Source: a virus
Taxonomy: Duplodnaviria > Caudoviricetes
Direction: 5' to 3' (one strand)
Virus record (IMG/VR): IMGVR_UViG_3300029823_000017
Coordinates: 1-25,619 of that record
Length of the DNA: 25,619 nt
Every line of letters begins with the position of its first letter. The first letter of the stretch is position 1. Shown here in pieces: positions 4,852 through 25,619 of this stretch. Below the pieces are notes generated by a model, which ran no database searches, was not told where the DNA came from, and saw nothing but the letters and a program-made list of their open reading frames with translations. A program made the translations under genes and the position numbers.

Positions 4852-4925
4852 GTCATTATGGTGTAATGGTAGCATATCAGTTTTCCAAACTGATAGTGAC
4901 AGTCCGAATCTGTTTAATGACTCCA
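4852..4925 (+). tRNA. tRNA-Gly (anticodon TCC), atypical
   Basis: Acceptor GTCATTA/TAATGAC; D arm GTGT-AATGGTA-GCAT; anticodon arm TCAGT-TT TCC AA-ACTGA; T arm GACAG-TCCGAAT-CTGTT; discriminator T; encoded CCA (4923-4925). Confidence 0.88.
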
Positions 4926-4983: not shown

Positions 4984-5373
4984 ATGTTTTTCAATGATGA
5001 TTTTGACTCAATTTTTAACAGTATGGAGATGGGTTTTGGTAGACCCACAAAGATTATCTTTAACACTAATGGTATTAAAGATCAGATGCCGTCTTATTGG
5101 CGTAAAACAGAAAATGGCTATCGTTGTACGGTAAAAACGCTTGGAATTAACAATGATGATGTTTCTGTTGAAGTAGAAAACAATGGAATCAAGGTTTCAG
5201 GTAAAAGTGAAGTTGAGGGAGAATCTTATGATACTCTTATTGAACTTCCTATTGCAGAAGATGTAATAGACAACATTACAGAGATTAAACATAAAACAAT
5301 TAATGGTCTTACATTTGTTGATCTTATTGTAAATAGACCTGAAAAGAAAAAGATTAAAATTACAAAAGCGTAA
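4984..5373 (+). CDS. Hsp20/alpha-crystallin-like small heat shock protein
   Basis: 129 aa; F-rich N-terminus, LGINNDDVSVEVENNGIKVSGK, NGLTFVDL, C-terminal KKIKI (IxI) motif; SD AGGAGG. Confidence 0.75.
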   Translation: MFFNDDFDSIFNSMEMGFGRPTKIIFNTNGIKDQMPSYWRKTENGYRCTVKTLGINNDDVSVEVENNGIKVSGKSEVEGESYDTLIELPIAEDVIDNITEIKHKTINGLTFVDLIVNRPEKKKIKITKA

Positions 5374-5416: not shown

Positions 5417-5451
5417 GAGGGCGGTAGGCAATAGCTTATCGCTCTTTTTAT
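5417..5451 (+). terminator. Intrinsic terminator after Hsp20-like gene
   Basis: GAGGGCGGTAGGC-AATA-GCTTATCGCTCTT stem running into a T-tract. Confidence 0.7.
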
Positions 5452-5663
5452 GATGTACTGCGAGAACACCCGTGACTTTAGTCATGGGATGAATCGCTTA
5501 CATATGTTGTTGGATATTTCAAATAAATGCTGATAAATACTTGACTTTTACAAGTACGGTAGGAACTACCGGAATTTACGCCTACGGACATTATGTAAGA
5601 CTGAATTAGTCAGCAATGATGGTTGAAATAGGAATCACGCGACTTTAGTCGTGGGAGGTTCAA
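5452..5663 (+). mobile_element. Non-autonomous IS605 derivative (PATE-like mini element), copy 1
   Basis: Follows TTTAT (5447-5451, one extra G); left end nearly identical to the IS605 at 24436; hairpins CCCGTGAC-TTTA-GTCATGGG and CACGCGAC-TTTA-GTCGTGGG; ends in TTCAA. Confidence 0.92.
5548..5663 (+). ncRNA. Putative TnpB omegaRNA scaffold (copy 1); guide would be the flank from 5664
   Basis: CGGTAG-GAA-CTACCG hairpin, CCTA..TAGG stem, internal hairpin, TTGAA (5623-5627) complementary to terminal TTCAA; occupies the IS605 right end. Confidence 0.72.
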
Positions 5664-5745
5664 ATGTGATTATTAAGGTAATAACTTGATAATTGCTAAA
5701 TAGAAGCGTGGTTTTATTTTAAATATTAGAAGGGAGATTTTTATT

Positions 5746-6747
5746 ATTTCTCAAGGTAGAAAAAAAATTGATAAAGTTAAGGAGAATACAAAATCTCCTA
5801 TTAGGATTAATACAGACATTAAAATAGAAAAGACTAATTATAAAGAAGAAGAACAAAAGGTTTTTTATTGTTCTTGTTGTGGAAAACCATATGATAAGCA
5901 AAAAGGGAATTTCCCTATTTCTTATTCCCCTTTTTATGCTGGTAATAACGGATATGTAACAATATGCAATAATTGCATTGAAAAATATTTTCCTAAACTT
6001 ACTGATTTTTTTAGTGGAAATGAAGAAAAAGCGATAGAAAGATTTGCTCAAATTTTTGATTGGTATTATCAAGAAAAGGCTGTAGCCGCGACAAGAAAAA
6101 TTAGTGCAGGTAGAAATAGAGTTAGAGGTTATCCAAGTAAAATGTGTTTACCTCAAACAAAAGATCATGGTACTACATATTTAGACACAATAAGAGATAG
6201 AGTTGATAATACTATTGGTTCTTTAGATAATTTACAAGAAGAACGAGAAAATGGACAAACAAATGTGAGTGATAAAATTGCAAAAAAATGGGGAATTGAT
6301 TTATTTTCCTCAAAAGAATGTAATATATTAGAAGATCATTATCAAATGTTAAAAAGACAGAATCCCAATTGTGATAGTAATCAAGAGATTTTTATTAAAG
6401 ATTTATGTTATACAAAACTTTATCAATTACAAGCTCTTAAAGATAAAAAACCAGATGATTTTAAAAAATTAACAGAATTATATCAGGATACATTTAAAAA
6501 AGCTGGTTTAAAAACAATACAAGAAACTGATTCAAGTAGTGATGAAACATTAGGAGTAACATTAGCAACTATAGCTCAATATACACCTGAAGAATATTAT
6601 AAAAATAAAAAATTATATAAGGATTTTGATAATATTGGGGATTATTTTAAAAGATTTGTATTAAGACCTTTCAAGAATTTAATTACAGGTTCTACTGAAA
6701 GAGATAAAGAATATTGTGTAAAAGATGATGAAAATGAAGAAGATTAA
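5746..6747 (+). CDS. Putative terminase small subunit (YonG-like) with N-terminal Zn finger; probable ATT start
   Basis: Frame open from 5704 with no ATG/GTG/TTG until 6142; SD AAGGGAG (5730-5736), ATT at 5743/5746; extension encodes CSCC...ICNNC; directly upstream of and overlapping terL. Confidence 0.72.
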   Translation: MSQGRKKIDKVKENTKSPIRINTDIKIEKTNYKEEEQKVFYCSCCGKPYDKQKGNFPISYSPFYAGNNGYVTICNNCIEKYFPKLTDFFSGNEEKAIERFAQIFDWYYQEKAVAATRKISAGRNRVRGYPSKMCLPQTKDHGTTYLDTIRDRVDNTIGSLDNLQEERENGQTNVSDKIAKKWGIDLFSSKECNILEDHYQMLKRQNPNCDSNQEIFIKDLCYTKLYQLQALKDKKPDDFKKLTELYQDTFKKAGLKTIQETDSSSDETLGVTLATIAQYTPEEYYKNKKLYKDFDNIGDYFKRFVLRPFKNLITGSTERDKEYCVKDDENEED

Positions 6748-8545
6748 TGTTTATGCTGATGAAACACAAAGTAAATTATATAAAAAATTTCCATCTACTC
6801 ATTTTTTAAGTAATCCTGATAATGTACATCATGTTTTTTTATGGAATACTTTTTTTAGGCGAAATTTACATAGATTAGCTATTGATTATTTAAAAATTAA
6901 TCTTTATCCTTATCAAGCTTTAATGTTATATTTAATGGGAATTTGTCATTTTATTGTTGTTATTGCATGTCGTGCTGCTGCTAAATCATTTATTATTGCA
7001 TTATACTCTTGTTGTCGTTGCATAACTCGACCTTATACTAAAATTGTATTAACAAGTTCTACCAAGGGGCAATCAAAATTAATTGTTTCTGATAAAATTC
7101 AGGGAGAACTAATGAACATGTCTCCTATGTTAAGGAGAGAAATTAGTCGTATAAAAGATAATCAAAATGAAGTTGTTGTATATTTTAGGGATAAAAGTAC
7201 AATTACAGTTGTCCCTGCTTCTGATAATGGACGTGGACATCGCTCTCATTGTTGTATTAGAGAAGAATTTAGACAAATTGATAAGACAGTTGAAGATAGT
7301 GTTTTATCTCCATTTCAAACTGTTAGACAAGCTCCATATATGTTAAGAGAGCCATATTGTTCAATGAAAGAGTTGCAAGAAGAGCCAGTTAATATTTATA
7401 TAAGTTCTTCATGGGTAGACGCTGGACATTGGATGTGGGATATTGTTGATCAAGCATATGATGGTATGATGAATGGTGAACAATCATGTTTGCTAGCTTT
7501 TGATGAAAGTATTACTTTAAAACATAATATTCGTACAATGAACCAAATGAGACAAGAACATAAAAAATTAGATTCATTAACATGGCGTATAGAATATTTA
7601 AATGAACGAGTTAAAGAAAACACACATGCATTTTTTGATTATAAAATGTTAGCTCAAAATCAAAATTTGAAAAAGCCTTTCTATCCTCAAAACTTTCTAC
7701 AATATAAAAATCAAAGAGAAAATAAATATAACATTCCAAAGCAAACTGGTGAAATTCGTATAGTTGCGTGCGATATGGCTTTTATTGAAAACAAAAATAA
7801 TGATAATTCAGTATTCTCTTGTATGAGGTTATTACCTGAAAGTAAAAAATATGAAAAAACTGATAATAGTTCTGTTGAAGTAAAGCAAGGTTATATACGT
7901 TCTGTCCCATATATAGAAAGTGTACAAGGTGGAGATACAGATAAACAGGCAATAAGAATAAGAGAATTATATGAAGATTTTCAAGCCGATTATATTGTTT
8001 TAGATTTACGGAATGCTGGAATTTCTATATATGATAAACTTGCAAAAGTTATGTATGACGAAGAAAGAGATTGTGAATACTCTCCTTTAACATGTATTAA
8101 TGATCAGAATATAGCTAATAGAATTATTATTGATGGTGCAAAGCCATCAATTTTTGTTATAAATGCTTCTCAAAAACTTAATAGTGATATTGCTTTAGCT
8201 ATGAGGAATACTCTTGAAAATAAGCAGATTGATTTGTTGGTTAATTATAATGAAGCCAAAGAAGAAATATTACCAAAATTTAAAAAATATAGACAAGCGG
8301 TTGATATAGATACTCAATTATTTTATGAACAACCATTTTTGGAAACTCAAATTCTTATCAGTGAAATGACAGGTTTGGTTTATAAAACAAATGATCAAAC
8401 TGGGACAATTACCATTCATGAGCAAGGTACGAATCGAAAAGACCATTACACCAGTATTTCTTACGGAAATTGGTTTGCATCTTTACTTGAAAAAGATTTA
8501 TTATCTCAAGAATCTGATTATGATTTTGTTATAAGTTATTCATAA
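6725..8545 (+). CDS. terL: Terminase large subunit (YonF-like)
   Basis: LYPYQ adenine-binding motif, ACRAAAKS Walker A variant, GRGHR..IREEFR Walker B variant, YISSS, ACDMA and RKDHYTS nuclease motifs; start may be 6734. Confidence 0.9.
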   Translation: MMKMKKINVYADETQSKLYKKFPSTHFLSNPDNVHHVFLWNTFFRRNLHRLAIDYLKINLYPYQALMLYLMGICHFIVVIACRAAAKSFIIALYSCCRCITRPYTKIVLTSSTKGQSKLIVSDKIQGELMNMSPMLRREISRIKDNQNEVVVYFRDKSTITVVPASDNGRGHRSHCCIREEFRQIDKTVEDSVLSPFQTVRQAPYMLREPYCSMKELQEEPVNIYISSSWVDAGHWMWDIVDQAYDGMMNGEQSCLLAFDESITLKHNIRTMNQMRQEHKKLDSLTWRIEYLNERVKENTHAFFDYKMLAQNQNLKKPFYPQNFLQYKNQRENKYNIPKQTGEIRIVACDMAFIENKNNDNSVFSCMRLLPESKKYEKTDNSSVEVKQGYIRSVPYIESVQGGDTDKQAIRIRELYEDFQADYIVLDLRNAGISIYDKLAKVMYDEERDCEYSPLTCINDQNIANRIIIDGAKPSIFVINASQKLNSDIALAMRNTLENKQIDLLVNYNEAKEEILPKFKKYRQAVDIDTQLFYEQPFLETQILISEMTGLVYKTNDQTGTITIHEQGTNRKDHYTSISYGNWFASLLEKDLLSQESDYDFVISYS

Positions 8546-8565
8546 GGAAGGAGGCTGAATTATTT

Positions 8566-10212
8566 TTGGATGATAAAACAGATAAAACAGAAGATATTGA
8601 AGAAAATGATGATTCATATAAAATAGAAACCAATTCTATTGGTTCAGAATCTTATTCGTTTTTTAATATTGACCATGATGTATCTAATTTATCTATGGAG
8701 GGATTACAGGGGTATATAAAATATCCTATGATATATAATTCTATTTTAAGAGAGATTTCAAAAGAATGTTATAATTCAAATGGCATGTATGCAAGGTCTA
8801 TAGATACAAGGGTTTCTTTACCTTTGCTATCTTATGTTTGTGTTTCAAGAAAATCTTTAAGTGGTAAAAAAATTAATAGTAAAGATAAGAAACGTAAAAA
8901 AAGAATTATATTACAAATGAAACTTATTAATCATGAAAAAACCACTCGTGATATTTTAAGAAAATTAGATATAGATGGAATGTATGTTGGAATCCTTAGA
9001 GATACTACTGCAAGCAATATAGAGGTTATGCCGTCAAGTGGTATAGTTGAATCTATTGATAGGCTTGAAGGTCTTTCTTTGGATGATAATTTTATGATTC
9101 AACCTCTTGATTTAGACTATTGTAAAATTATAGGTTTTCAAAACAATGTAGCTATTGCTGCTTTTGATATGATGTATTTTGATCAATTTAAACATGGTGG
9201 TTTGGTTAATGAAATTAAAAATTATCCTAAAGATTTTATGAAAGCATATTTGGATTATAGAAAAGATAGCAGTAAACGATGGTTTATATTAGATTATAAA
9301 ACGACAATAGCTTTGACTGCAAGAGCAAATATTGATGAGCCATATGGTCGTCCTTATGGTATGTCAGCGTTTTCTGATATGAAAATGCAACAGGATTATG
9401 ACAATAGTCAATATAAAGTTGTTAATGAATTAGCAAGTAGTATTTATTATTTGATTTTGCCAGAAGGTGAAAAAAAAGGACGTTGTTCTTTGAATTCAGC
9501 ACAACAAAATCAAGTTATTGATTCTTTTAAAAATGCTGTAAAAATTAATACAAATAATAATATTGGTAGTAATTCTAAAATTTCTACTTTGACATTGCCT
9601 ACAGGAACGACAATAAATAGATTATCTAAAGATTCTTCATTGCTAAAAGACACATTAAGTGACGAAAATATTAAAAAAATATCTACCAGTTTAGGATTTG
9701 CAAGTTCTGCTTTAAATGCGGCAAGTGAAGGTAGTTCTGGTTTTGCTGGGTTACAAATTAATATGGATATAATATCGTCACAAATATTTACTGAATTAAA
9801 CCAAATTGGATATGAATATACTCGTTTGTTGAATAATCATGAAGGTATTAAACCTTCTGAATATATAGATATTAAATATTTACCACTTAGCCGTTTAAAT
9901 AAGAATGATATGTATGACAAAATGAAGGAATTATATATGACAGCAGGAGGTTCTCGTACATACATGATTGCAGCAGGTGGGGTTAATCCAGAAGATTATA
10001 TGGCTGTTTGTGATGAAGAAATTAGTGATAATTTAGATAATAAATATAAACCGCATATTACAAGTTATACAGCTTCAAATTCCGCAGATAAATCTGATCC
10101 TGATAATAATTTAGGAGGAGCGCCTCAAAAGTCGGAAGATGATTTAAGCTTTAATGGCGCTGTCACAAAAGGCACAGGTACTAATGAAAATATTAAACCA
10201 AGTACTAAATAA
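8566..10212 (+). CDS. Portal protein (YonE-like)
   Basis: 548 aa directly after terL; EPYGRPYG motif; C-terminal TSYT...GGAP segment; SD GGAGG with TTG start. Confidence 0.82.
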   Translation: MDDKTDKTEDIEENDDSYKIETNSIGSESYSFFNIDHDVSNLSMEGLQGYIKYPMIYNSILREISKECYNSNGMYARSIDTRVSLPLLSYVCVSRKSLSGKKINSKDKKRKKRIILQMKLINHEKTTRDILRKLDIDGMYVGILRDTTASNIEVMPSSGIVESIDRLEGLSLDDNFMIQPLDLDYCKIIGFQNNVAIAAFDMMYFDQFKHGGLVNEIKNYPKDFMKAYLDYRKDSSKRWFILDYKTTIALTARANIDEPYGRPYGMSAFSDMKMQQDYDNSQYKVVNELASSIYYLILPEGEKKGRCSLNSAQQNQVIDSFKNAVKINTNNNIGSNSKISTLTLPTGTTINRLSKDSSLLKDTLSDENIKKISTSLGFASSALNAASEGSSGFAGLQINMDIISSQIFTELNQIGYEYTRLLNNHEGIKPSEYIDIKYLPLSRLNKNDMYDKMKELYMTAGGSRTYMIAAGGVNPEDYMAVCDEEISDNLDNKYKPHITSYTASNSADKSDPDNNLGGAPQKSEDDLSFNGAVTKGTGTNENIKPSTK

Positions 10213-10217
10213 TTTAT

Positions 10218-10428
10218 ATGTACTGCGAGAACACCCGTGACTTTAGTCATGGGATGAATCGCTTACATATGTCGTTGGATATTTCAAATAAATGCTGATA
10301 AATACTTGACTTTTACAAGTACGGTAGGAACTACCGGAATTTACGCCTACGGACATTATGTAAGACTACAATAGGTAGCAACAATGGTTGAAGTAGGAAT
10401 CACGTGACTTTAGTCGTGTGAGGTTCAA
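10218..10428 (+). mobile_element. Non-autonomous IS605 derivative (PATE-like mini element), copy 2
   Basis: Follows TTTAT (10213-10217); 211 bp, 11 substitutions versus copy 1 by manual alignment; both end hairpins; ends in TTCAA; sits between the portal stop and the protease SD. Confidence 0.93.
10313..10428 (+). ncRNA. Putative TnpB omegaRNA scaffold (copy 2); guide would be the flank from 10429
   Basis: Same architecture as copy 1, with compensatory changes (CTAC-AATAG-GTAG vs CTGA-ATTAG-TCAG) and perfect CCTAC/GTAGG stem. Confidence 0.74.
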
Positions 10429-10444
10429 TGAGAGGTGGTGATAA

Positions 10445-11953
10445 ATGAAAATGAATGGTTTGATTGAAATATCTGGCAAAACAGCTGAAGCAGGTCGAAC
10501 TCCTGTAAAATTTATTTTACATGAAATATATAATTCTCCATCTGAATATAATGCTAATGGTATTTCATGGAATAGAAAATATACAGAACAAAATATGTAT
10601 AGCGTAAAAGGTATGCCTTTAACTTGCCAATTTGCAGATGATGAGCATACTATTCCTTTTGGCGGTCATGGAGAACTTTCAGAACAAGGTCAAGATATTA
10701 AATTTGATGATAGCTTAGTTGTTGGTTCATTTGAAAATAGTTATATAGATGATAATCTTGAAATAAATGGTAGAAAATTTTCAGGATTAGTTGGAGATGG
10801 ATATATCTATAATCAAAGATTTCCTTCACTTGTAGAATATTTGCAAAAACAATATCAAGATAAAAGTCCTGTTGAAAGTTCTGTTGAAATTTGTGCAGAT
10901 AAGTCTAAAGGAAATTCAAAAATAATTTATGATGGTGGTTGGAAAGAAAAAGGGAGAGTTCCGCAAGATTATCAATATAGTGGACACGCTTTTTGTATAG
11001 GGGTTGAGCCTGCTGATAATAAAGCTTTAATGATAGAGTTAAATCAGGCTAAAAAAGAAGGCGTAAAACAAAATATGGTAAAAGAAAAAATTAATATTGA
11101 TAATTCTAAAGCAAGTGTTTATAATTCATCTTCTTGGAATGTTAATAAAGGTGAATATTTTCGTAAATGCAAAAATGCTTCTAATGCAATGGCAGTATTT
11201 AATGAAGCATATTTAGATAATAGCATTTCTTCTATAGAAGAAGCTGTTGAAGCAGATGTGAAATATCCTCATCATCATTTTGAAGGAAATAAAATGGTTG
11301 TAGATGTTTCAGGAATTAAGGCTGCTGTACAAAGGTTGGCGCAAAATGATCCGAATAATGAGAAAGCAAAAGCACATGCAAAAAAACATTATAATGAGCT
11401 TGGTCTTGAGCTACCTGAATTTTTAGGTGGTAAATCAAATAAACAGGAGGTAAATCAAATGGATGAAAAAGTAGTTATGGAGCTTAATCAGAAGATTGAA
11501 GATAAAACTAATGAAATTAATACATTGACTTCTGAGAATAAAGAGCTTAGTAAAAAAAACAAGGAGCTTAATGAAACTATAACAAAAGCAAACAAAGCTG
11601 TAGAGGAAGTTAATAGTAAACTTAAAACAGCTACAGAGGAGTTAAATGCTTTAAAAGATGAAAAATCAAAAGCCGAGATAGAAAAGAAAAAAGCGGAAAC
11701 TAATTCATATTTTAAAACAGAAATTCCTAAGGATGGATTTACAGAAGCAGAAATTAATTCTCTTCAGTCTTTTGTAGATAAATCTGATATTGAAGGTTTA
11801 AAGAAAGCTGAATCTGAATTATGCACTAAAAAATTTAAAGAAATGGTTTCTAAAGATACTAAAACAGAAATTAATTCTAAAGAAACTTTTATTTCTTTCC
11901 CTGATTCTAAGAAAAAAGTTATTACCGATAAAGAGTTTAGTTTTTGTGATTAA
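10445..11953 (+). CDS. Prohead protease-scaffold fusion (YonD-like)
   Basis: Between portal and capsid genes; N-terminal YNANG, GGHG, SSVEI, G-x-EPA protease-like motifs; C-terminal coiled coil. Confidence 0.78.
   Translation: MKMNGLIEISGKTAEAGRTPVKFILHEIYNSPSEYNANGISWNRKYTEQNMYSVKGMPLTCQFADDEHTIPFGGHGELSEQGQDIKFDDSLVVGSFENSYIDDNLEINGRKFSGLVGDGYIYNQRFPSLVEYLQKQYQDKSPVESSVEICADKSKGNSKIIYDGGWKEKGRVPQDYQYSGHAFCIGVEPADNKALMIELNQAKKEGVKQNMVKEKINIDNSKASVYNSSSWNVNKGEYFRKCKNASNAMAVFNEAYLDNSISSIEEAVEADVKYPHHHFEGNKMVVDVSGIKAAVQRLAQNDPNNEKAKAHAKKHYNELGLELPEFLGGKSNKQEVNQMDEKVVMELNQKIEDKTNEINTLTSENKELSKKNKELNETITKANKAVEEVNSKLKTATEELNALKDEKSKAEIEKKKAETNSYFKTEIPKDGFTEAEINSLQSFVDKSDIEGLKKAESELCTKKFKEMVSKDTKTEINSKETFISFPDSKKKVITDKEFSFCD
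11459..11953 (+). CDS. Nested in-frame scaffolding protein
   Basis: Internal SD CAGGAGGT 7 nt before in-frame ATG (MDEKVVMELN), exactly where the coiled coil begins. Confidence 0.65.
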   Translation: MDEKVVMELNQKIEDKTNEINTLTSENKELSKKNKELNETITKANKAVEEVNSKLKTATEELNALKDEKSKAEIEKKKAETNSYFKTEIPKDGFTEAEINSLQSFVDKSDIEGLKKAESELCTKKFKEMVSKDTKTEINSKETFISFPDSKKKVITDKEFSFCD

Positions 11954-18718: not shown

Positions 18719-19462
18719 GTGACAGAAAAGAAATATTGTGTATATTTACATACAAGTCCAAGCAATAAATATTATGTCGGAATAACTAGCCAAGCACCTG
18801 AAGGTAGATGGGGTAAGGGTGGTTTTAGATATAAGCGAAATCATCATTTTTGGAACGCAATACAAAAATATGGATGGAATAATTTTAAGCATGAAATTAT
18901 ATTTGAAAATCTAACAGAAAATGAAGCAAAAGCAAAAGAACATGAAATGGTAATGATGTTAAAATCATATGATAGTAATTATGGTTACAATATGACAGAA
19001 GGTGGAGATACTGTATTTAAACCAACTATTGAAAGTAGAAGGAAAATGAGTTTAGCCAAAAAAGGTCAAACATATATGGCAGATATTGCAAGGGAGATGT
19101 TTTCAAAACCAGTTAAACAATATGGTTTAGACCATACATATATAAAAACATGGAATAGCGTATCAGATGCAGAAAGAGCATTAAATATATGTCATGAATG
19201 TATTTGTGATGTTTGCAATGGAAAATTAAATAAGGCTGGAGGCTACTATTGGTCTTATGTGGGTAATAAACCATTGTTTAGAGAGAATCATCAAGTAAGA
19301 CCTGTAAAACAAATTGATTTAGTAACTGGTAAAATAATTAATATTTTCCCATCAATGAAATCAGCAGGTAATAAATTACATATTAATTATAAAAATATCC
19401 AATTGGTTTGTGTAAATAAAAGAAATAAGGCCGGAGGTTATGGATGGGAATACGTCGCATAA
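18719..19462 (+). CDS. Free-standing GIY-YIG homing endonuclease with NUMOD3 and two NUMOD1-like repeats
   Basis: CVYLHT...YYVGIT, AIQKYGWNNF, GYNMTEGG, RRKMSLAKKG, two PVKQ...KAGGY.W.Y repeats. Confidence 0.9.
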   Translation: MTEKKYCVYLHTSPSNKYYVGITSQAPEGRWGKGGFRYKRNHHFWNAIQKYGWNNFKHEIIFENLTENEAKAKEHEMVMMLKSYDSNYGYNMTEGGDTVFKPTIESRRKMSLAKKGQTYMADIAREMFSKPVKQYGLDHTYIKTWNSVSDAERALNICHECICDVCNGKLNKAGGYYWSYVGNKPLFRENHQVRPVKQIDLVTGKIINIFPSMKSAGNKLHINYKNIQLVCVNKRNKAGGYGWEYVA

Positions 19463-20466: not shown

Positions 20467-21645
20467 ATGAGTAGACAATATGCTAGGAAAGCAGGTTCGC
20501 ATAGTTTTAGTAACGAAGAAATGATAAAATTAACACGAGAATTTTATAATAAGTATCATAAGATTGTATTAAGAGATTTTATATCGAAAAATAATTTGCC
20601 TTCTTCTGTTACAATGCTTAAACAATTTGGTTCATTAAAATCTTTATTAGAACAAGCGAAAATACCTATCTCAAAAGAAAACCAGCATAATTTTGATAGA
20701 ATAAAATTGTCTGATAAAGAATTGTTAGATAGTTTAAAAATAGAATCCGATAAATATTTTATAAAGCATGGATGTTTGATGACATATGATGAAATTGATA
20801 GCAATATCAATTTGCAGTCATCGTCAACCTATCTTAATAGATTCGGTACATTAAATGAAATTTATACAATGATAGGTTATTCAATTTCCGATATTTCTAA
20901 ACTTAATAAAACATATTTTGAGCAAGATATGTTATTAAAATATAAACAATCTTGTGAAAAATACAATCATACATTAAATAGTAGAGAAATTAATAAATTA
21001 CATCAAATATATCCAGATGAAATTTATGCAATGGAAACTTATATAAATCATTTTGGTAATTTACATACAGTACAGCAAAAATGCGGGTACGTTCCTACAG
21101 TTTTAGGTAAAAATATTACAAAAGATGAATCTATAGAACTATTAAAAAGGTTAGCTAAAGAATTGAATCATACCCCTCAACAACAGGATTTGATTAAATA
21201 TGATTATATGCCAAGTTGTAGTTATTATATCAATAATTTCGGTACATTCAAAGAAGCATTAAAAATAGCCAACCTTAAATCTTCAAAAATTTATATTACA
21301 AGCAAAGGTACAAAATGCAATTCTGCGTTTGAATATAAATTAGCATTAACGCTTGAAAAATATAATGTTAATTTTGAAAAAGAAGTTATGTATTCCAATG
21401 TAATTCCTAATTTTAAAAGAAAGTACAGATTTGATTTTGTTATAAAAATTGATAATATCAAATATTATATTGAGTTATTTGGTATTAAGAATAATCTTAA
21501 ATATAATCAGCGAAAGCAAGAAAAAATTATTTTATGTAAAAATAATAATATTCCTTTGATTGAATTATATCAAGAAGATTTATTTTTAAAAAAAGAAAGT
21601 GAAATTTATAAATATATCAATGAATACATAAAACAATTTATTTAA
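20467..21645 (+). CDS. Putative homing endonuclease: four homing-endonuclease-associated repeats plus PD-(D/E)xK-like nuclease domain
   Basis: Four ~70-aa repeats ending FGSL/FGTL/FGNL/FGTF; C-terminal SAFE...YRFDFVI...YYIELFG...KQEKIILCKNNNIPLIEL. Confidence 0.75.
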   Translation: MSRQYARKAGSHSFSNEEMIKLTREFYNKYHKIVLRDFISKNNLPSSVTMLKQFGSLKSLLEQAKIPISKENQHNFDRIKLSDKELLDSLKIESDKYFIKHGCLMTYDEIDSNINLQSSSTYLNRFGTLNEIYTMIGYSISDISKLNKTYFEQDMLLKYKQSCEKYNHTLNSREINKLHQIYPDEIYAMETYINHFGNLHTVQQKCGYVPTVLGKNITKDESIELLKRLAKELNHTPQQQDLIKYDYMPSCSYYINNFGTFKEALKIANLKSSKIYITSKGTKCNSAFEYKLALTLEKYNVNFEKEVMYSNVIPNFKRKYRFDFVIKIDNIKYYIELFGIKNNLKYNQRKQEKIILCKNNNIPLIELYQEDLFLKKESEIYKYINEYIKQFI

Positions 21646-24435: not shown

Positions 24436-24523
24436 AGGTAACGCGAGAACACCCGTGACTTTAGTCATGGGATGAATCGCTTACATATGTCGTTGGATAT
24501 TTCAAATAAATGCTGATAAATAC

Positions 24524-24552
24524 TTGACTTTGTTATATACATATGTTAAACT
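24524..24552 (+). promoter_or_regulatory. sigmaA-type promoter for tnpA
   Basis: TTGACT, 17-bp spacer, TAAACT with TG-n extended -10. Confidence 0.65.
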
Positions 24553-24570
24553 GCATTCAGGTGATAATAA

Positions 24571-24972
24571 ATGGAAGTTAAGTCAGGTAGAGGATATGTG
24601 TATTCAATTCAATATCATATTGTTTGGTGTGTAAAATATAGACATAAAATAATTACTTCAACAATAGAAAAGTCATTAATTGAAATATTACAAAAAATAG
24701 CAAATGATAATAACTTTTCAATTATTGAAGTTAATACAGATTTAGATCATGTCCATTTATTAATAGATTGTACTCCCCAACATTATATTCCTGATATGAT
24801 AAAAGCTTTAAAGGGTGTAAGTGCTAGGTTATTAATGAAAGAATATAGTTGCGTTTTAAAAAGTAAATTATGGGGCGGTCATCTATGGAATCCATCATAT
24901 TTTATAGCAACCGTTAGCGAAAATACAGAAGAACAAATAAAAAACTATATTAAAAATCAAAAACAGAAGTGA
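24571..24972 (+). CDS. tnpA: IS200/IS605 Y1 HUH transposase TnpA
   Basis: YHIVWCVKYR, DHVHLL (HUH), KGVSAR, LWNPSYF, YIKNQ. Confidence 0.97.
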   Translation: MEVKSGRGYVYSIQYHIVWCVKYRHKIITSTIEKSLIEILQKIANDNNFSIIEVNTDLDHVHLLIDCTPQHYIPDMIKALKGVSARLLMKEYSCVLKSKLWGGHLWNPSYFIATVSENTEEQIKNYIKNQKQK

Positions 24973-24982
24973 GGTGAATAAT

Positions 24983-25619
24983 GTGGAAAAAGCTTATAAG
25001 TACAGGATATATCCTACTAAACAGCAAGAAATATTAATTCAAAAGACTTTTGGTTGTTGTAGGTTTGTGTATAATCAATATCTTGCTAAACGTATTGAAT
25101 TATATAAACAAAATAAATCTACCATGAACTATAATGCTTGTAGTAATGATTTGAAAAGATTGAAACAAGAATTTAAATGGTTAAAAGAAATTGATTCAGT
25201 TTCAATTCAATCCTCTCTTAGAGATTTAGATATTGCTTATCAAAATTTCTTTAGACGAGTTAAACAAGGAGATAAGAAAGCAGGTTTTCCTAAGTTTAAA
25301 AGCAAAAAATATAATAAGAAATCATATAAAACAAAGTTTACTAATGGAAATATTCAAGTATTAGATACTAAGATTAAACTTCCTAAATTGGGGTTAGTAA
25401 AATGCAAGGTATCTAAACAAATTCAAGGTAGAATACTTAATGCAACAATATCGCAAAATCCATCTGGTAAATATTTTGTATCCGTATGTTGTACTGATGT
25501 AAATGTTCCACAATATTCATCTACTTCGGCTGTTGTTGGTATTGATTTAGGTATTAAAGAATTTGCTATAACTTCTGATGGACAACATATTAAGAATCCC
25601 AAGTATCTTGCAAAATCAG
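24983..25619 (+). CDS. tnpB: RNA-guided endonuclease TnpB, 5' partial
   Basis: SD GAGGTG, GTG start; AYKYRIYPT...FGCCRFVYN, GFPKFKSK, SGKYFVS, RuvC-I VGIDLGIKEFAITSDG; runs off the window. Confidence 0.95.
   Translation, partial: MEKAYKYRIYPTKQQEILIQKTFGCCRFVYNQYLAKRIELYKQNKSTMNYNACSNDLKRLKQEFKWLKEIDSVSIQSSLRDLDIAYQNFFRRVKQGDKKAGFPKFKSKKYNKKSYKTKFTNGNIQVLDTKIKLPKLGLVKCKVSKQIQGRILNATISQNPSGKYFVSVCCTDVNVPQYSSTSAVVGIDLGIKEFAITSDGQHIKNPKYLAKS

Follow-up and report, generated by a model that had tools for sequence, protein, structure and literature searches.

The phage DNA analysed here (the window, 25,619 nucleotides) carries two PATEs, gene-less derivatives of IS200/IS605 elements, which we call mini 1 and mini 2 (Table 1). 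We assign a probability of roughly 0.6 to the reading that both were inserted after TTTAT without duplication, that they likely arose by a single microhomology deletion, and that they are likely moved by TnpA and likely retained through TnpB and their own guide RNA.

Table 1. Coordinates of the minis, their predicted RNA features and the full IS605 element in the window.
Feature	Position	Strand	Remarks
TAM TTTAT of mini 1	5447..5451	+	in T-tract of an intrinsic terminator; empty-site joint at 5451
Mini 1	5452..5663	+	212-nt PATE-like IS605 derivative
Left-end DNA guide (5465-5468, presumed) and subterminal hairpin (5469-5488), mini 1	5465..5488	+	from the fold; predicted TnpA site; identical in full element
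Orphan -35 hexamer of tnpA promoter, mini 1	5541..5546	+	-10 box deleted
5-nt microhomology AGTAC at left-end/right-end junction, mini 1	5553..5557	+	AGTAC at both L097:164 and L097:1741
Predicted omegaRNA scaffold, mini 1 (107 nt)	5557..5663	+	stem 1, pseudoknot, stems 2, 3a and 3b, right-end hairpin, TTCAA end
Predicted guide 1 (right flank of mini 1)	5664..5679	+	unchanged in X8 empty allele
TAM TTTAT of mini 2	10213..10217	+	immediately 3' of portal stop codon 10210-10212
Mini 2	10218..10428	+	211-nt PATE-like IS605 derivative; between portal gene and next head gene
Same AGTAC junction, mini 2	10318..10322		repeat found in L097
Predicted omegaRNA scaffold, mini 2	10322..10428	+	from structure comparison
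Predicted guide 2 (right flank of mini 2)	10429..10444	+	covers ribosome-binding site of gene starting at 10445
Full IS605 element	24436..25619	+	left end 24436-24570, tnpA, 5' part of tnpB; cut by window end
tnpA	24571..24972	+	Y1 transposase, intact, 133 aa; PF01797, E 8e-42
tnpB, first ~212 codons	24974..25619	+	RuvC-I aspartate; PF12323, PF01385; remainder beyond window

Boundaries, insertion sites and mobility

The preliminary description had placed the minis at 5452-5663 and 10218-10428, and empty-site joints in contigs of other runs confirmed these bounds exactly, the joint at site 1 (5451 to 5664) skipping 212 nucleotides and that at site 2 (10217 to 10429) skipping 211. The two copies are identical at 200 of 211 positions, with 11 differences, and mini 1 is longer by one extra G at its left tip. 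As had been described, TTCAA closes each mini, both have the same junction and, up to TACTTGACTTT, their left end is that of the IS605 element at 24436; mini 2 matches it at 89 of 89 positions from element position 8 (compared through the identical L098), and three differences between the minis and the element fall within the first 7 nt. No open reading frame of at least 50 aa is present in the minis, and their right part has stops in all three + frames. Folding placed subterminal hairpins at both ends (the right-end hairpin of mini 1 is 5636-5655), and none of the 25 longest of the 50 inverted-repeat pairs in the window lies at the mini termini. We take positions 5465-5468 to be the DNA guide, following the guide/TAM pairing rule of the IS608/ISDra2 work. 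Pairing between DNA guide and TAM is given as a general principle in the accessible part of Meers et al. (bioRxiv 10.1101/2023.03.14.532601).

TTTAT precedes each mini, and no target duplication is seen, since the empty-site joints have 0 letters fitting both sides. The search for empty sites in related phages, suggested in the preliminary description, yielded exact ones in sister phages, with guide-matching flanks unchanged. Empty alleles occur at site 1 in X2, X6 and X8 and at site 2 in X6, X8 and X9; they come from four studies, one of which (P1) also includes the possible source run. A mini with the same junction occurs at seven distinct left flanks (two here and five other phage sites), all of them after TTTAT, a motif that stands at all 17 distinct left flanks seen in the close family. 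The single junction at seven sites, together with the filled/empty polymorphism at both window sites, bears out the proposal that the mini is mobile as a unit. The features of PATEs that show in the sequence are present (a length too short to code, subterminal palindromes, insertion at a fixed motif without duplication, several sites), with TnpA in trans as the probable mover, whereas the terminal inverted repeats and target-site duplication of MITEs are absent.

No record among the annotated phages and plasmids covers 80% of a mini; two phage records match the scaffold at 73% and 53 plasmid records match one hairpin. The search of GTDB genomes pointed to no host, since its only exact left-end match belongs to an element that is more distant (L116). 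The scaffold motif was found at none of 80 loci of portal relatives, whose 43-78% protein identity puts them too far away for the target to be expected. A possible second, independent mini appeared as a joint in X2 and X4 (side 28 nt, likeness 85); its 18 inner letters led to 20 viral loci, of which none has IS ends. A scaffold of the same family that lacks the left end persists in L141.

The full IS605 element

An intact tnpA with the same left end as the minis lies on the same contig. The part of tnpB inside the window shares 87% identity with the TnpB of L112, which is complete and close to ISDra2 TnpB (E 4e-113; PDB 8bf8, 8h1j), and complete sibling TnpBs retain the RuvC D/E/D motifs and the zinc finger. 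The element at 24436 is the likely source of TnpA and TnpB in trans. The element of L001 was considered as an IscB and discarded, having no Pfam match.

Origin by deletion between short repeats

Both minis do share one breakpoint, as had been noted, and yet it does not lie directly after TTGACTTT: the nine bases 3' of TTGACTTT are promoter-spacer DNA of the sibling full element L097, and the junction is the AGTAC repeat further on. In L097, deletion between the two AGTAC repeats would leave 213 of 1790 nt. Judged by its sequence, an L097-like element fits the junction as parent of the minis, and such a deletion would explain both ends, in agreement with the view of the minis as protein-less deletion derivatives; the window's own element was rejected as direct parent because the spacer after its -35 box differs. 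The 211-nt element is fully accounted for by the two IS ends.

The triplets at the junction had been read as 'LQVR*', resembling the last tnpB codons. This reading, in that frame or another, was abandoned, since TnpB of the close full-length siblings in which the end is seen (L085 and L114, near-identical to each other, L097 and L112) stops upstream of the scaffold, 12-15 nt before it and with other residues, in 4 of 4 elements. Likewise, the right end, described earlier as ~115 nt, comprises 107-111 nt of right-end-derived DNA. When the left-end zone of L097 is compared with its last 181 usable nt, 25 of the 30 short repeats fall upstream of the scaffold, so that retention of the scaffold may be an accident of AT-rich DNA.

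Predicted omegaRNA scaffold

We set the features of the right end against the ISDra2 positions in the accessible part of PMC10097598. Every predicted omegaRNA helix and the pseudoknot are kept in both minis, which supports, at the level of structure prediction, the earlier claim that the whole guide-RNA scaffold was preserved; a right-end scaffold with stems 1-4 and a pseudoknot, matching the cognate right end, is among the traits of an ISDra2-type omegaRNA. In the family alignment 90% of cells are paired, both sides change in 17 of the 31 pairs, and 0 of 500 shuffles reach the covariation score (slid controls, 29-47% paired), figures that refer to a structure drawn on mini 1 and to related sequences, which can exceed shuffles. 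The triplet of the pseudoknot, which would pair with bases -5..-3, does so in all 14 rows (four of them show a double change and one a G-U variant), as checked by position from the 3' end because the pseudoknot columns are misaligned in alignment A1. Between mini 1 and mini 2, two paired changes in stem 3b keep base pairing.

The right part of the minis matches that of the complete tnpA-tnpB siblings L097 and L114 at 92-97 of 107 nt, and the same-site allele L112 matches over the 53 nt available. Agreement with the right end of the full element, on which the earlier proposal depended, is therefore seen in the siblings; that of the window's own element, being beyond 25619, was judged through the same-site alleles L112 and L102. 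Two variant forms of the mini (the stem-3b loop of L102 and the right-end hairpin of L107) are found in full elements as well, so the covariation is a property of the family and no proof of selection on the minis. No Rfam family covers the minis, the only Rfam match in the window being one tRNA; the group I intron core of an IStron was not found in the window by the same means.

Transcription context

The full element has a promoter-like site at 24524-24552. The minis have lost the -10 box of this tnpA promoter, mini 1 has no -10-like hexamer at a spacing of 16-18 nt and no promoter was called within the minis, so that mini RNA would need read-through. A site at 5425-5454, which straddles the left boundary of mini 1, was rejected as a promoter, since such sites occur at chance level (4 found against 5.4 expected). 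A terminator-like stem (5417-5446) lies directly upstream of mini 1, and mini 2 is on the sense strand within the portal-head operon. In the predicted read-through fold stem 1 is still formed (pair probability 0.95-1.0). The RNA run X20 gave three short contigs (depth 2-3, strand not given), none of which spans a junction by 31 nt on each side.

Guides and targets

TnpB guides derive from the flank, according to the accessible part of PMC8612924, and each predicted guide, being its own flank, matches only its own empty site. Elsewhere in the window the longest TAM-adjacent match is 4 nt, and no other target lies within 4 mismatches in 143 records. In X8 and X9 the empty alleles are unchanged over guide 2, with no difference ahead of 10477. 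In more distant phages, the target is absent from all 16 compact portal-head junctions, and the homologue of site 1 in L141 is mismatched at 3 of 16 positions. A reciprocal case is offered by a full element, as the empty site of L085 is unchanged in L114. With guides so restricted, a guide set is a poorer fit than selfish retention or homing. The dispersed guide set, with phage exclusion, put forward in the preliminary description has no support beyond what any scarless IS605 insertion provides, the guide being the flank and distant phages having targets absent or changed.

Comparison with known elements

Nor is the arrangement new, as had been left open: the idea that omegaRNA-bearing PATEs are used in trans by TnpB was already stated by Meers et al. 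(bioRxiv 10.1101/2023.03.14.532601), in whose text, as far as accessible, PATEs often encode omegaRNAs that would need TnpB in trans, and stand-alone omegaRNAs were reported by Altae-Tran et al. Like the minis, the Geobacillus stearothermophilus ISGst PATEs of Meers et al. are protein-less, have both ends and leave scarless empty sites in related strains, and the TAM of ISGst2 is also TTTAT. Unlike these chromosomal elements, the minis are on phage genomes, form one clone traced to a 5-nt microhomology deletion and have no promoter of their own, which ISGst PATEs may or may not keep.

The PATEs of Haloquadratum walsbyi (PMC3119063) and the 271-nt PATE-like element of Halanaerobium hydrogeniformans (PMC7290912) are similar: they have subterminal palindromes but lack terminal inverted repeats, do not duplicate the target, are too short to code and come from a core deletion between repeats. 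In the element of Halanaerobium, as in the minis, the left hairpin and all of the right end are retained. These elements are chromosomal, whereas the minis are in phage; they were described before omegaRNAs were known, and the deletion repeat was a 22-nt palindrome there against 5 nt here. The stand-alone omegaRNAs of the OMEGA systems are likewise mobilised guide-RNA loci without effector or transposase, said in the available part of PMC10691335 to act in trans and to widen the targets of one nuclease; for the minis the effector would be a TnpB resembling that of ISDra2, with a putative use in trans.

With ISDra2 of Deinococcus radiodurans (PMC8612924, PMC10097598, accessible parts) the family shares a stem 2 at -35..-32 and a pseudoknot with -5..-3 at matching places, a TTCAA-type end, a flank-derived 16-nt guide and a closely related TnpB. 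It differs in the TAM (TTTAT against TTGAT) and in the scaffold, which has 107 nt wholly 3' of the tnpB stop against 116 nt overlapping the gene. An experimental test of phage-to-phage drive by a PATE omegaRNA was not found in the literature, judged mostly from titles and abstract openings. The primary demonstration of stand-alone omegaRNAs was reportedly that of Altae-Tran in 2021, for IscB.

Alternative explanations

That the minis are collapsed repeats of full elements is hardly credible. Short-read contigs do break at mini repeats, and L107 and L114 share a left flank and differ in content and right flank; L107 and L102 are possibly misjoined. However, the same junction recurs in contigs of several assemblies (L083, L101, L102, L107 and L111), the two copies differ at 11 positions and each is tied to its own flank, X1 contigs extending from within each right end into the flank, and phage depth is even on either side of the minis. 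It is also possible, although unlikely, that the minis are mere substrates of TnpA, carrying the scaffold by chance of the deletion end and giving no functional guide RNA. The lost promoter, the terminator ahead of mini 1, the 25 of 30 L097 microhomologies that would retain the scaffold regardless, the structural variants common to minis and full elements and the persistence of empty alleles in several studies speak for it. On the other side, 7 of 7 minis from a left-end-anchored search have an intact scaffold start and no scaffold-less form was seen, although these are one clone; moreover, the stem-3b changes preserve pairing, mini 2 is sense-oriented in an operon, stem 1 survives the read-through fold and the scaffold persists in L141 without its left end.

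A phage that keeps the minis because TnpB and the guides destroy co-infecting sisters lacking them is a much less probable explanation. Close strains do offer a perfect TAM-plus-guide target in their empty alleles, the predicted target of guide 2 is a ribosome-binding site of the head operon, the L085/L114 pair repeats the situation with a full element, and TnpB biases plasmid competition, according to the accessible part of PMC11870625. Against this, the guides match nothing but their own sites (window and 143 records), the target is missing or altered in the distant phages, and the minis are polymorphic between phages, recent and also interrupt genes, tnpA itself included (L102); a cut near-identical genome would be expected to be repaired to the filled allele, to the benefit of the element.

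Proposed mechanism

In the reading that we prefer, deletion from AGTAC to AGTAC in an L097-like element, visible in the sequence, would have removed the -10 box, tnpA and tnpB and left both end hairpins and the whole predicted scaffold. This single junction is found at seven TTTAT sites, TnpA being the probable mover by analogy with the family, and recombination may have shuffled left-end and right-end variants between minis and full elements. The promoter-less minis would be transcribed by read-through, permitted by their co-orientation with phage genes, easily for mini 2 in the portal-head operon and poorly for mini 1 behind its terminator. As in ISDra2 and ISGst biology, TnpB would trim and bind this RNA and cut TAM-plus-flank wherever the mini has been excised or a sister genome lacks it; a filled genome would then serve as template for repair, restoring or spreading the mini, so that the beneficiary would be the element and not the phage. 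Donor-joint cleavage and homing (Meers et al., bioRxiv 10.1101/2023.03.14.532601; PMC8612924), trans use of omegaRNA (PMC10691335) and 5' trimming by TnpB are published, as far as the accessible parts of these sources tell. Sister phages often have the empty allele, so a drive, if there is one, does not sweep.

More tentatively, and with considerable doubt, we can imagine the promoter-less mini as a parasite of phage late mRNA: TnpB of a sibling element would cut guide RNA from the portal-head transcript and cleave the empty head-operon allele of co-infecting sisters, a protein-free drive in which guide binding would tax translation of the head gene.

Significance

The minis are a clean natural test case and not a new system: the parent is defined, the deletion junction measures 5 nt, both insertion sites are mapped and have exact empty counterparts in sister phages, and the genome also carries cognate TnpA and TnpB. 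The family supplies a TnpB resembling that of ISDra2, for which TTTAT is the predicted TAM and whose 107-nt scaffold lies clear of the gene. The trans action of PATE-borne omegaRNAs, proposed and, from the portion of the literature available, apparently little tested, becomes directly testable, as does the homing of such elements between co-infecting phages.

Phage Setting

The window is a phage contig of 25,619 nt, and all its long open reading frames (ORFs) lie on the plus strand (see table). The 502-aa gene that follows the portal gene may, judging by its position, encode a head protease or scaffold protein. The gene before the terminase appears to use an ATT start codon preceded by a ribosome-binding site (only its last 201 codons were called as an ORF), and loose ends at 6075 and 6593 in other runs are possibly insertions. 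In many relatives (L004-L080) 0.3–2.9 kb separate the portal and head genes, often with a shared structured-looking leader at the start, marking the portal-head junction as a hot spot of DNA insertion. The stretch occurs in metagenomes from runs labelled fermentation and landfill; the left-end-anchored genome search found no host.

Features of the window and of three related loci
Feature	Position	Strand	Remarks
tRNA gene	4852–4922		upstream of the Hsp20-like gene
Hsp20-like gene	4984–5373	+
Mini 1	5452–5663		212 nt
Gene before terminase	5746–6747		single open frame, ~333 codons
Terminase large subunit	6725–8545	+	weak PHROG match
Portal	8566–10212	+	E 5e-48
Mini 2	10218–10428		211 nt
502-aa gene	start 10445	+	PHROG of unknown function
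Structural genes	between 502-aa gene and contig end	+
Two homing-endonuclease-like genes	18719–19462, 20467–21645		free-standing; NUMOD1; HNH-associated repeats
IS605 element	24436, contig end	+	tnpA intact, tnpB first ~212 codons
Left-end hairpin element	L001:1–430	−	left end
Right end in Enterocloster phage CB457P1 (OP172753.1)	L082:2495–2619		unannotated, without tnpB
Same-family scaffold	L141:1940–2043	−	97% to mini 1 over 104 nt

The Two Minis and Their Empty Sites

The two gene-less IS605 derivatives (minis) recognized in the preliminary description are real copies of one another: they are identical at 200 of 211 positions, with 10 of the 11 differences within the last 61 nt, and both are preceded by the target motif TTTAT (TAM) and end in TTCAA. 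In a first set of four sequencing runs, we found contigs with site 1 empty (joint 5451→5664) in X2, X6 and X8, and with site 2 empty (joint 10217→10429) in X6 and X8; in a second set of four, both joints recurred in X8 and that of site 2 was also seen in X9. Neither was found in X4 (first set), nor in X1, the possible source run, or the RNA run X20 (second set). Target duplication is absent, with no letter fitting both sides of the joints. The flank 3′ of site 1 shows no difference up to 7375 in X8, nor does that of site 2 up to 10477 in X8 and X9. Each empty allele thus offers a perfect match to the TAM plus the predicted guide, the guides being the right flanks of the minis. Empty alleles are present in four studies, and therefore no sweep has occurred.

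At 5449–5454, the TAM and the G by which the 212-nt copy is longer read together as a −10-like hexamer. This scored no better than chance in the promoter scan; every G-type insertion would create one. Joints in X2 and X4 (5498→5553 and 10263→10318) may mark another, shorter type of mini, which would have a junction of its own and also keep the scaffold; their short side is only 28 nt, and this form was not found in viral contigs.

Origin of the Minis

The sequence LQVR*, previously taken to resemble the last tnpB codons, is not the end of tnpB, as TnpB of L085, L114 (near-identical to L085), L097 and L112 stops 12–15 nt before the predicted omegaRNA scaffold (the last 107 nt of the mini), with other residues, and the true junction lies further right than the breakpoint proposed. 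In the sibling full element L097, the −35 box is followed by the same nine bases as in the minis and then by its own −10 box and tnpA; AGTAC, the last five of these nine bases, recurs just before stem 1 of the right end. Deleting the DNA between these repeats takes out 1577 of the 1790 nt; the 213 nt that remain are what a mini with the left-end type of L097 would measure. We infer an L097-like parent and a microhomology-mediated deletion, as likewise described for haloarchaeal PATEs (PMC3119063). The −35 hexamer stays and the −10 box is gone.

Distribution of the Family

The left-end-anchored searches retrieved 2 loci from viral, 19 from metagenome and 1 from genome sequences (L098 and L099, identical to the window, were left out of the counts). 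The junction was identified at seven distinct left flanks (two in the window, L083, L101, L102, L107 and L111), and the mini has spread as a unit. Other loci are of full type (L085, L097, L100, L104, L105, L112 and L114), hold a left end only (L103, L106, L109, L110, L113 and L115), are too short at their end to separate a mini from an L097-type full element (L084), or belong to a more distant element (L108 and L116). TTTAT stands 5′ of 17/17 distinct close-family flanks (L085 is cut at that point). Flanking proteins matched a PHROG in 16 of 22 scanned (tape measure, thymidylate synthase, guanylate kinase, methyltransferases and others), thus the family is, as far as seen, one of phages. At each of the 14 other loci that have an ORF nearby, as in the window, the nearest one is on the strand of the element (L097 has no neighbouring ORF and L103 repeats L084); insertion into the lagging strand has been described (PMC8612924) and would yield this co-orientation if phage genes run with replication.

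The ends are mosaic: minis and full elements alike combine two types of left end with several variants of the right end in differing ways. Recombination between ends is the simple reading of this pattern, chimeric assembly being possible for single contigs. L112, at the same site as the full element of the window, is identical to it at 135/135 left-end and 401/402 tnpA positions, versus 415/518 (80% DNA) in the later part of tnpB, an apparent tnpB swap (window 24973–25618 compared). In L102, also at the site of 24436, a mini lies inside tnpA, and the rest of tnpA and tnpB is missing up to a right end; either the mini appears to have destroyed its own helper, or the contig is chimeric. In L001, a related left-end hairpin follows TTTAT and the inner reading frame is oppositely directed; this element, whose family has loose ends in X1, might be IscB-type, and the 133 aa of it that are present gave no Pfam match.

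Conservation of the Predicted Scaffold

The claim that the minis kept the whole predicted scaffold is borne out by right-end matches, a six-helix model and a pseudoknot. The window's own right end lies beyond the record, and the comparison was made indirectly, through siblings: the last 107 nt match the complete right ends of L097 and L114 at 92–97 positions, and the right end of L112 matches over the 53 nt present. Mini 1 served to draw the six-helix model. Across 14 right ends, 13 of them distinct (from 5 minis, 3 full siblings and 6 more distant ones, with L088-L092 and L096 excluded), 90% of its cells are paired, and 17/31 pairs have changes on both sides. The covariation score of the model was reached by 0/500 shuffles, which relatedness alone can beat, and slid controls were 29–47% paired. 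The stem 1 loop can pair with bases −5 to −3 in all 14 rows, with a double change in four, the pseudoknot seen in the ISDra2 structure (PMC10097598), and stem 2 is at −35 to −32 both in the minis and in ISDra2, where the region 5′ of the scaffold is reported to be dispensable (PMC10097598). TnpB of this family is closely related to that of ISDra2 (E 4e-113), and all three RuvC motifs are kept in L085, L097, L112 and L114.

The scaffold need not have been retained by selection. Of the 30 repeats of at least 5 nt that L097 offers between its left-end zone and its last part, 25 are located 5′ of the scaffold (110-nt versus 71-nt stretch) and so spare it; the minis all belong to one clone, and their compensatory variants may be derived from full elements.

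The L141 scaffold, with a compensatory stem 1, lies ~10 nt 3′ of TTTAT, behind an Hsp20-gene terminator, and no left-end hairpin was found in the 726 nt upstream; it is a predicted left-end-less omegaRNA, which TnpA presumably could not excise. The right end in L082 is omegaRNA-like, and the DNA around it looks, by eye, group I intron-like.

Predicted Expression, Guide Targets and Possible Homing

No promoter was left in the minis according to the promoter scan, and their RNA would arise by read-through. Mini 2 follows the portal stop and precedes the next ribosome-binding site, inside the portal-head stretch, so late mRNA would contain it; TnpB is reported to trim omegaRNA out of longer RNA (PMC10278001), and stem 1 still forms in the read-through fold. 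Mini 1 is inserted in the T-tract belonging to a terminator-like hairpin of 13 pairs and would therefore be transcribed weakly at best. The RNA run X20 yielded three short contigs at depth 2–3, none of which extended across the junction by 31 nt on both sides.

All testable PATE features were found in the minis, which are PATEs bearing a predicted omegaRNA, ordinary in kind. PATEs often encode omegaRNAs that would need TnpB of other elements in trans (Meers et al., bioRxiv 10.1101/2023.03.14.532601), mobilised stand-alone omegaRNAs are described as working in trans (PMC10691335), TnpB has been shown to be just as active when its omegaRNA is supplied in trans (10.1101/2023.11.20.567912), and a 271-nt PATE-like example is reported from Firmicutes (PMC7290912). 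Competition between plasmids driven by TnpB has been tested (PMC11870625) and homing types reviewed (PMC13565253); our literature searches listed no experiment that examined PATE-borne guides acting from one phage genome on another.

The minis had been proposed to act as a dispersed guide set for one TnpB, leading to homing or to exclusion between phages. A chosen set of guides does not agree with the predicted guides, which match only their own empty sites in the sequences searched: the longest TAM-adjacent match elsewhere in the window is 4 nt, no target within 4 mismatches was found in 143 records (868 kb), distant phages carry the target at the portal-head junction in 0/16 cases, and the L141 homologue of site 1 has 3/16 mismatches. 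Any cutting would thus be limited to close strains. The guides fit instead selfish retention or homing, proposed for ISDra2 (PMC8612924) and shown for ISGst2 (Meers et al., bioRxiv 10.1101/2023.03.14.532601). For a full element, there is a reciprocal filled/empty pair, the empty site of L085 being present in L114. The boldest reading, in which a protein-free element would drive itself from one co-infecting phage to another by way of late mRNA, seems unlikely (about one chance in four). Under selfish retention or homing, the minis would be mobilised by TnpA, and their RNA would be bound by TnpB and direct cleavage of empty sites in close strains; repair there with the filled genome as template would be expected to copy the mini.
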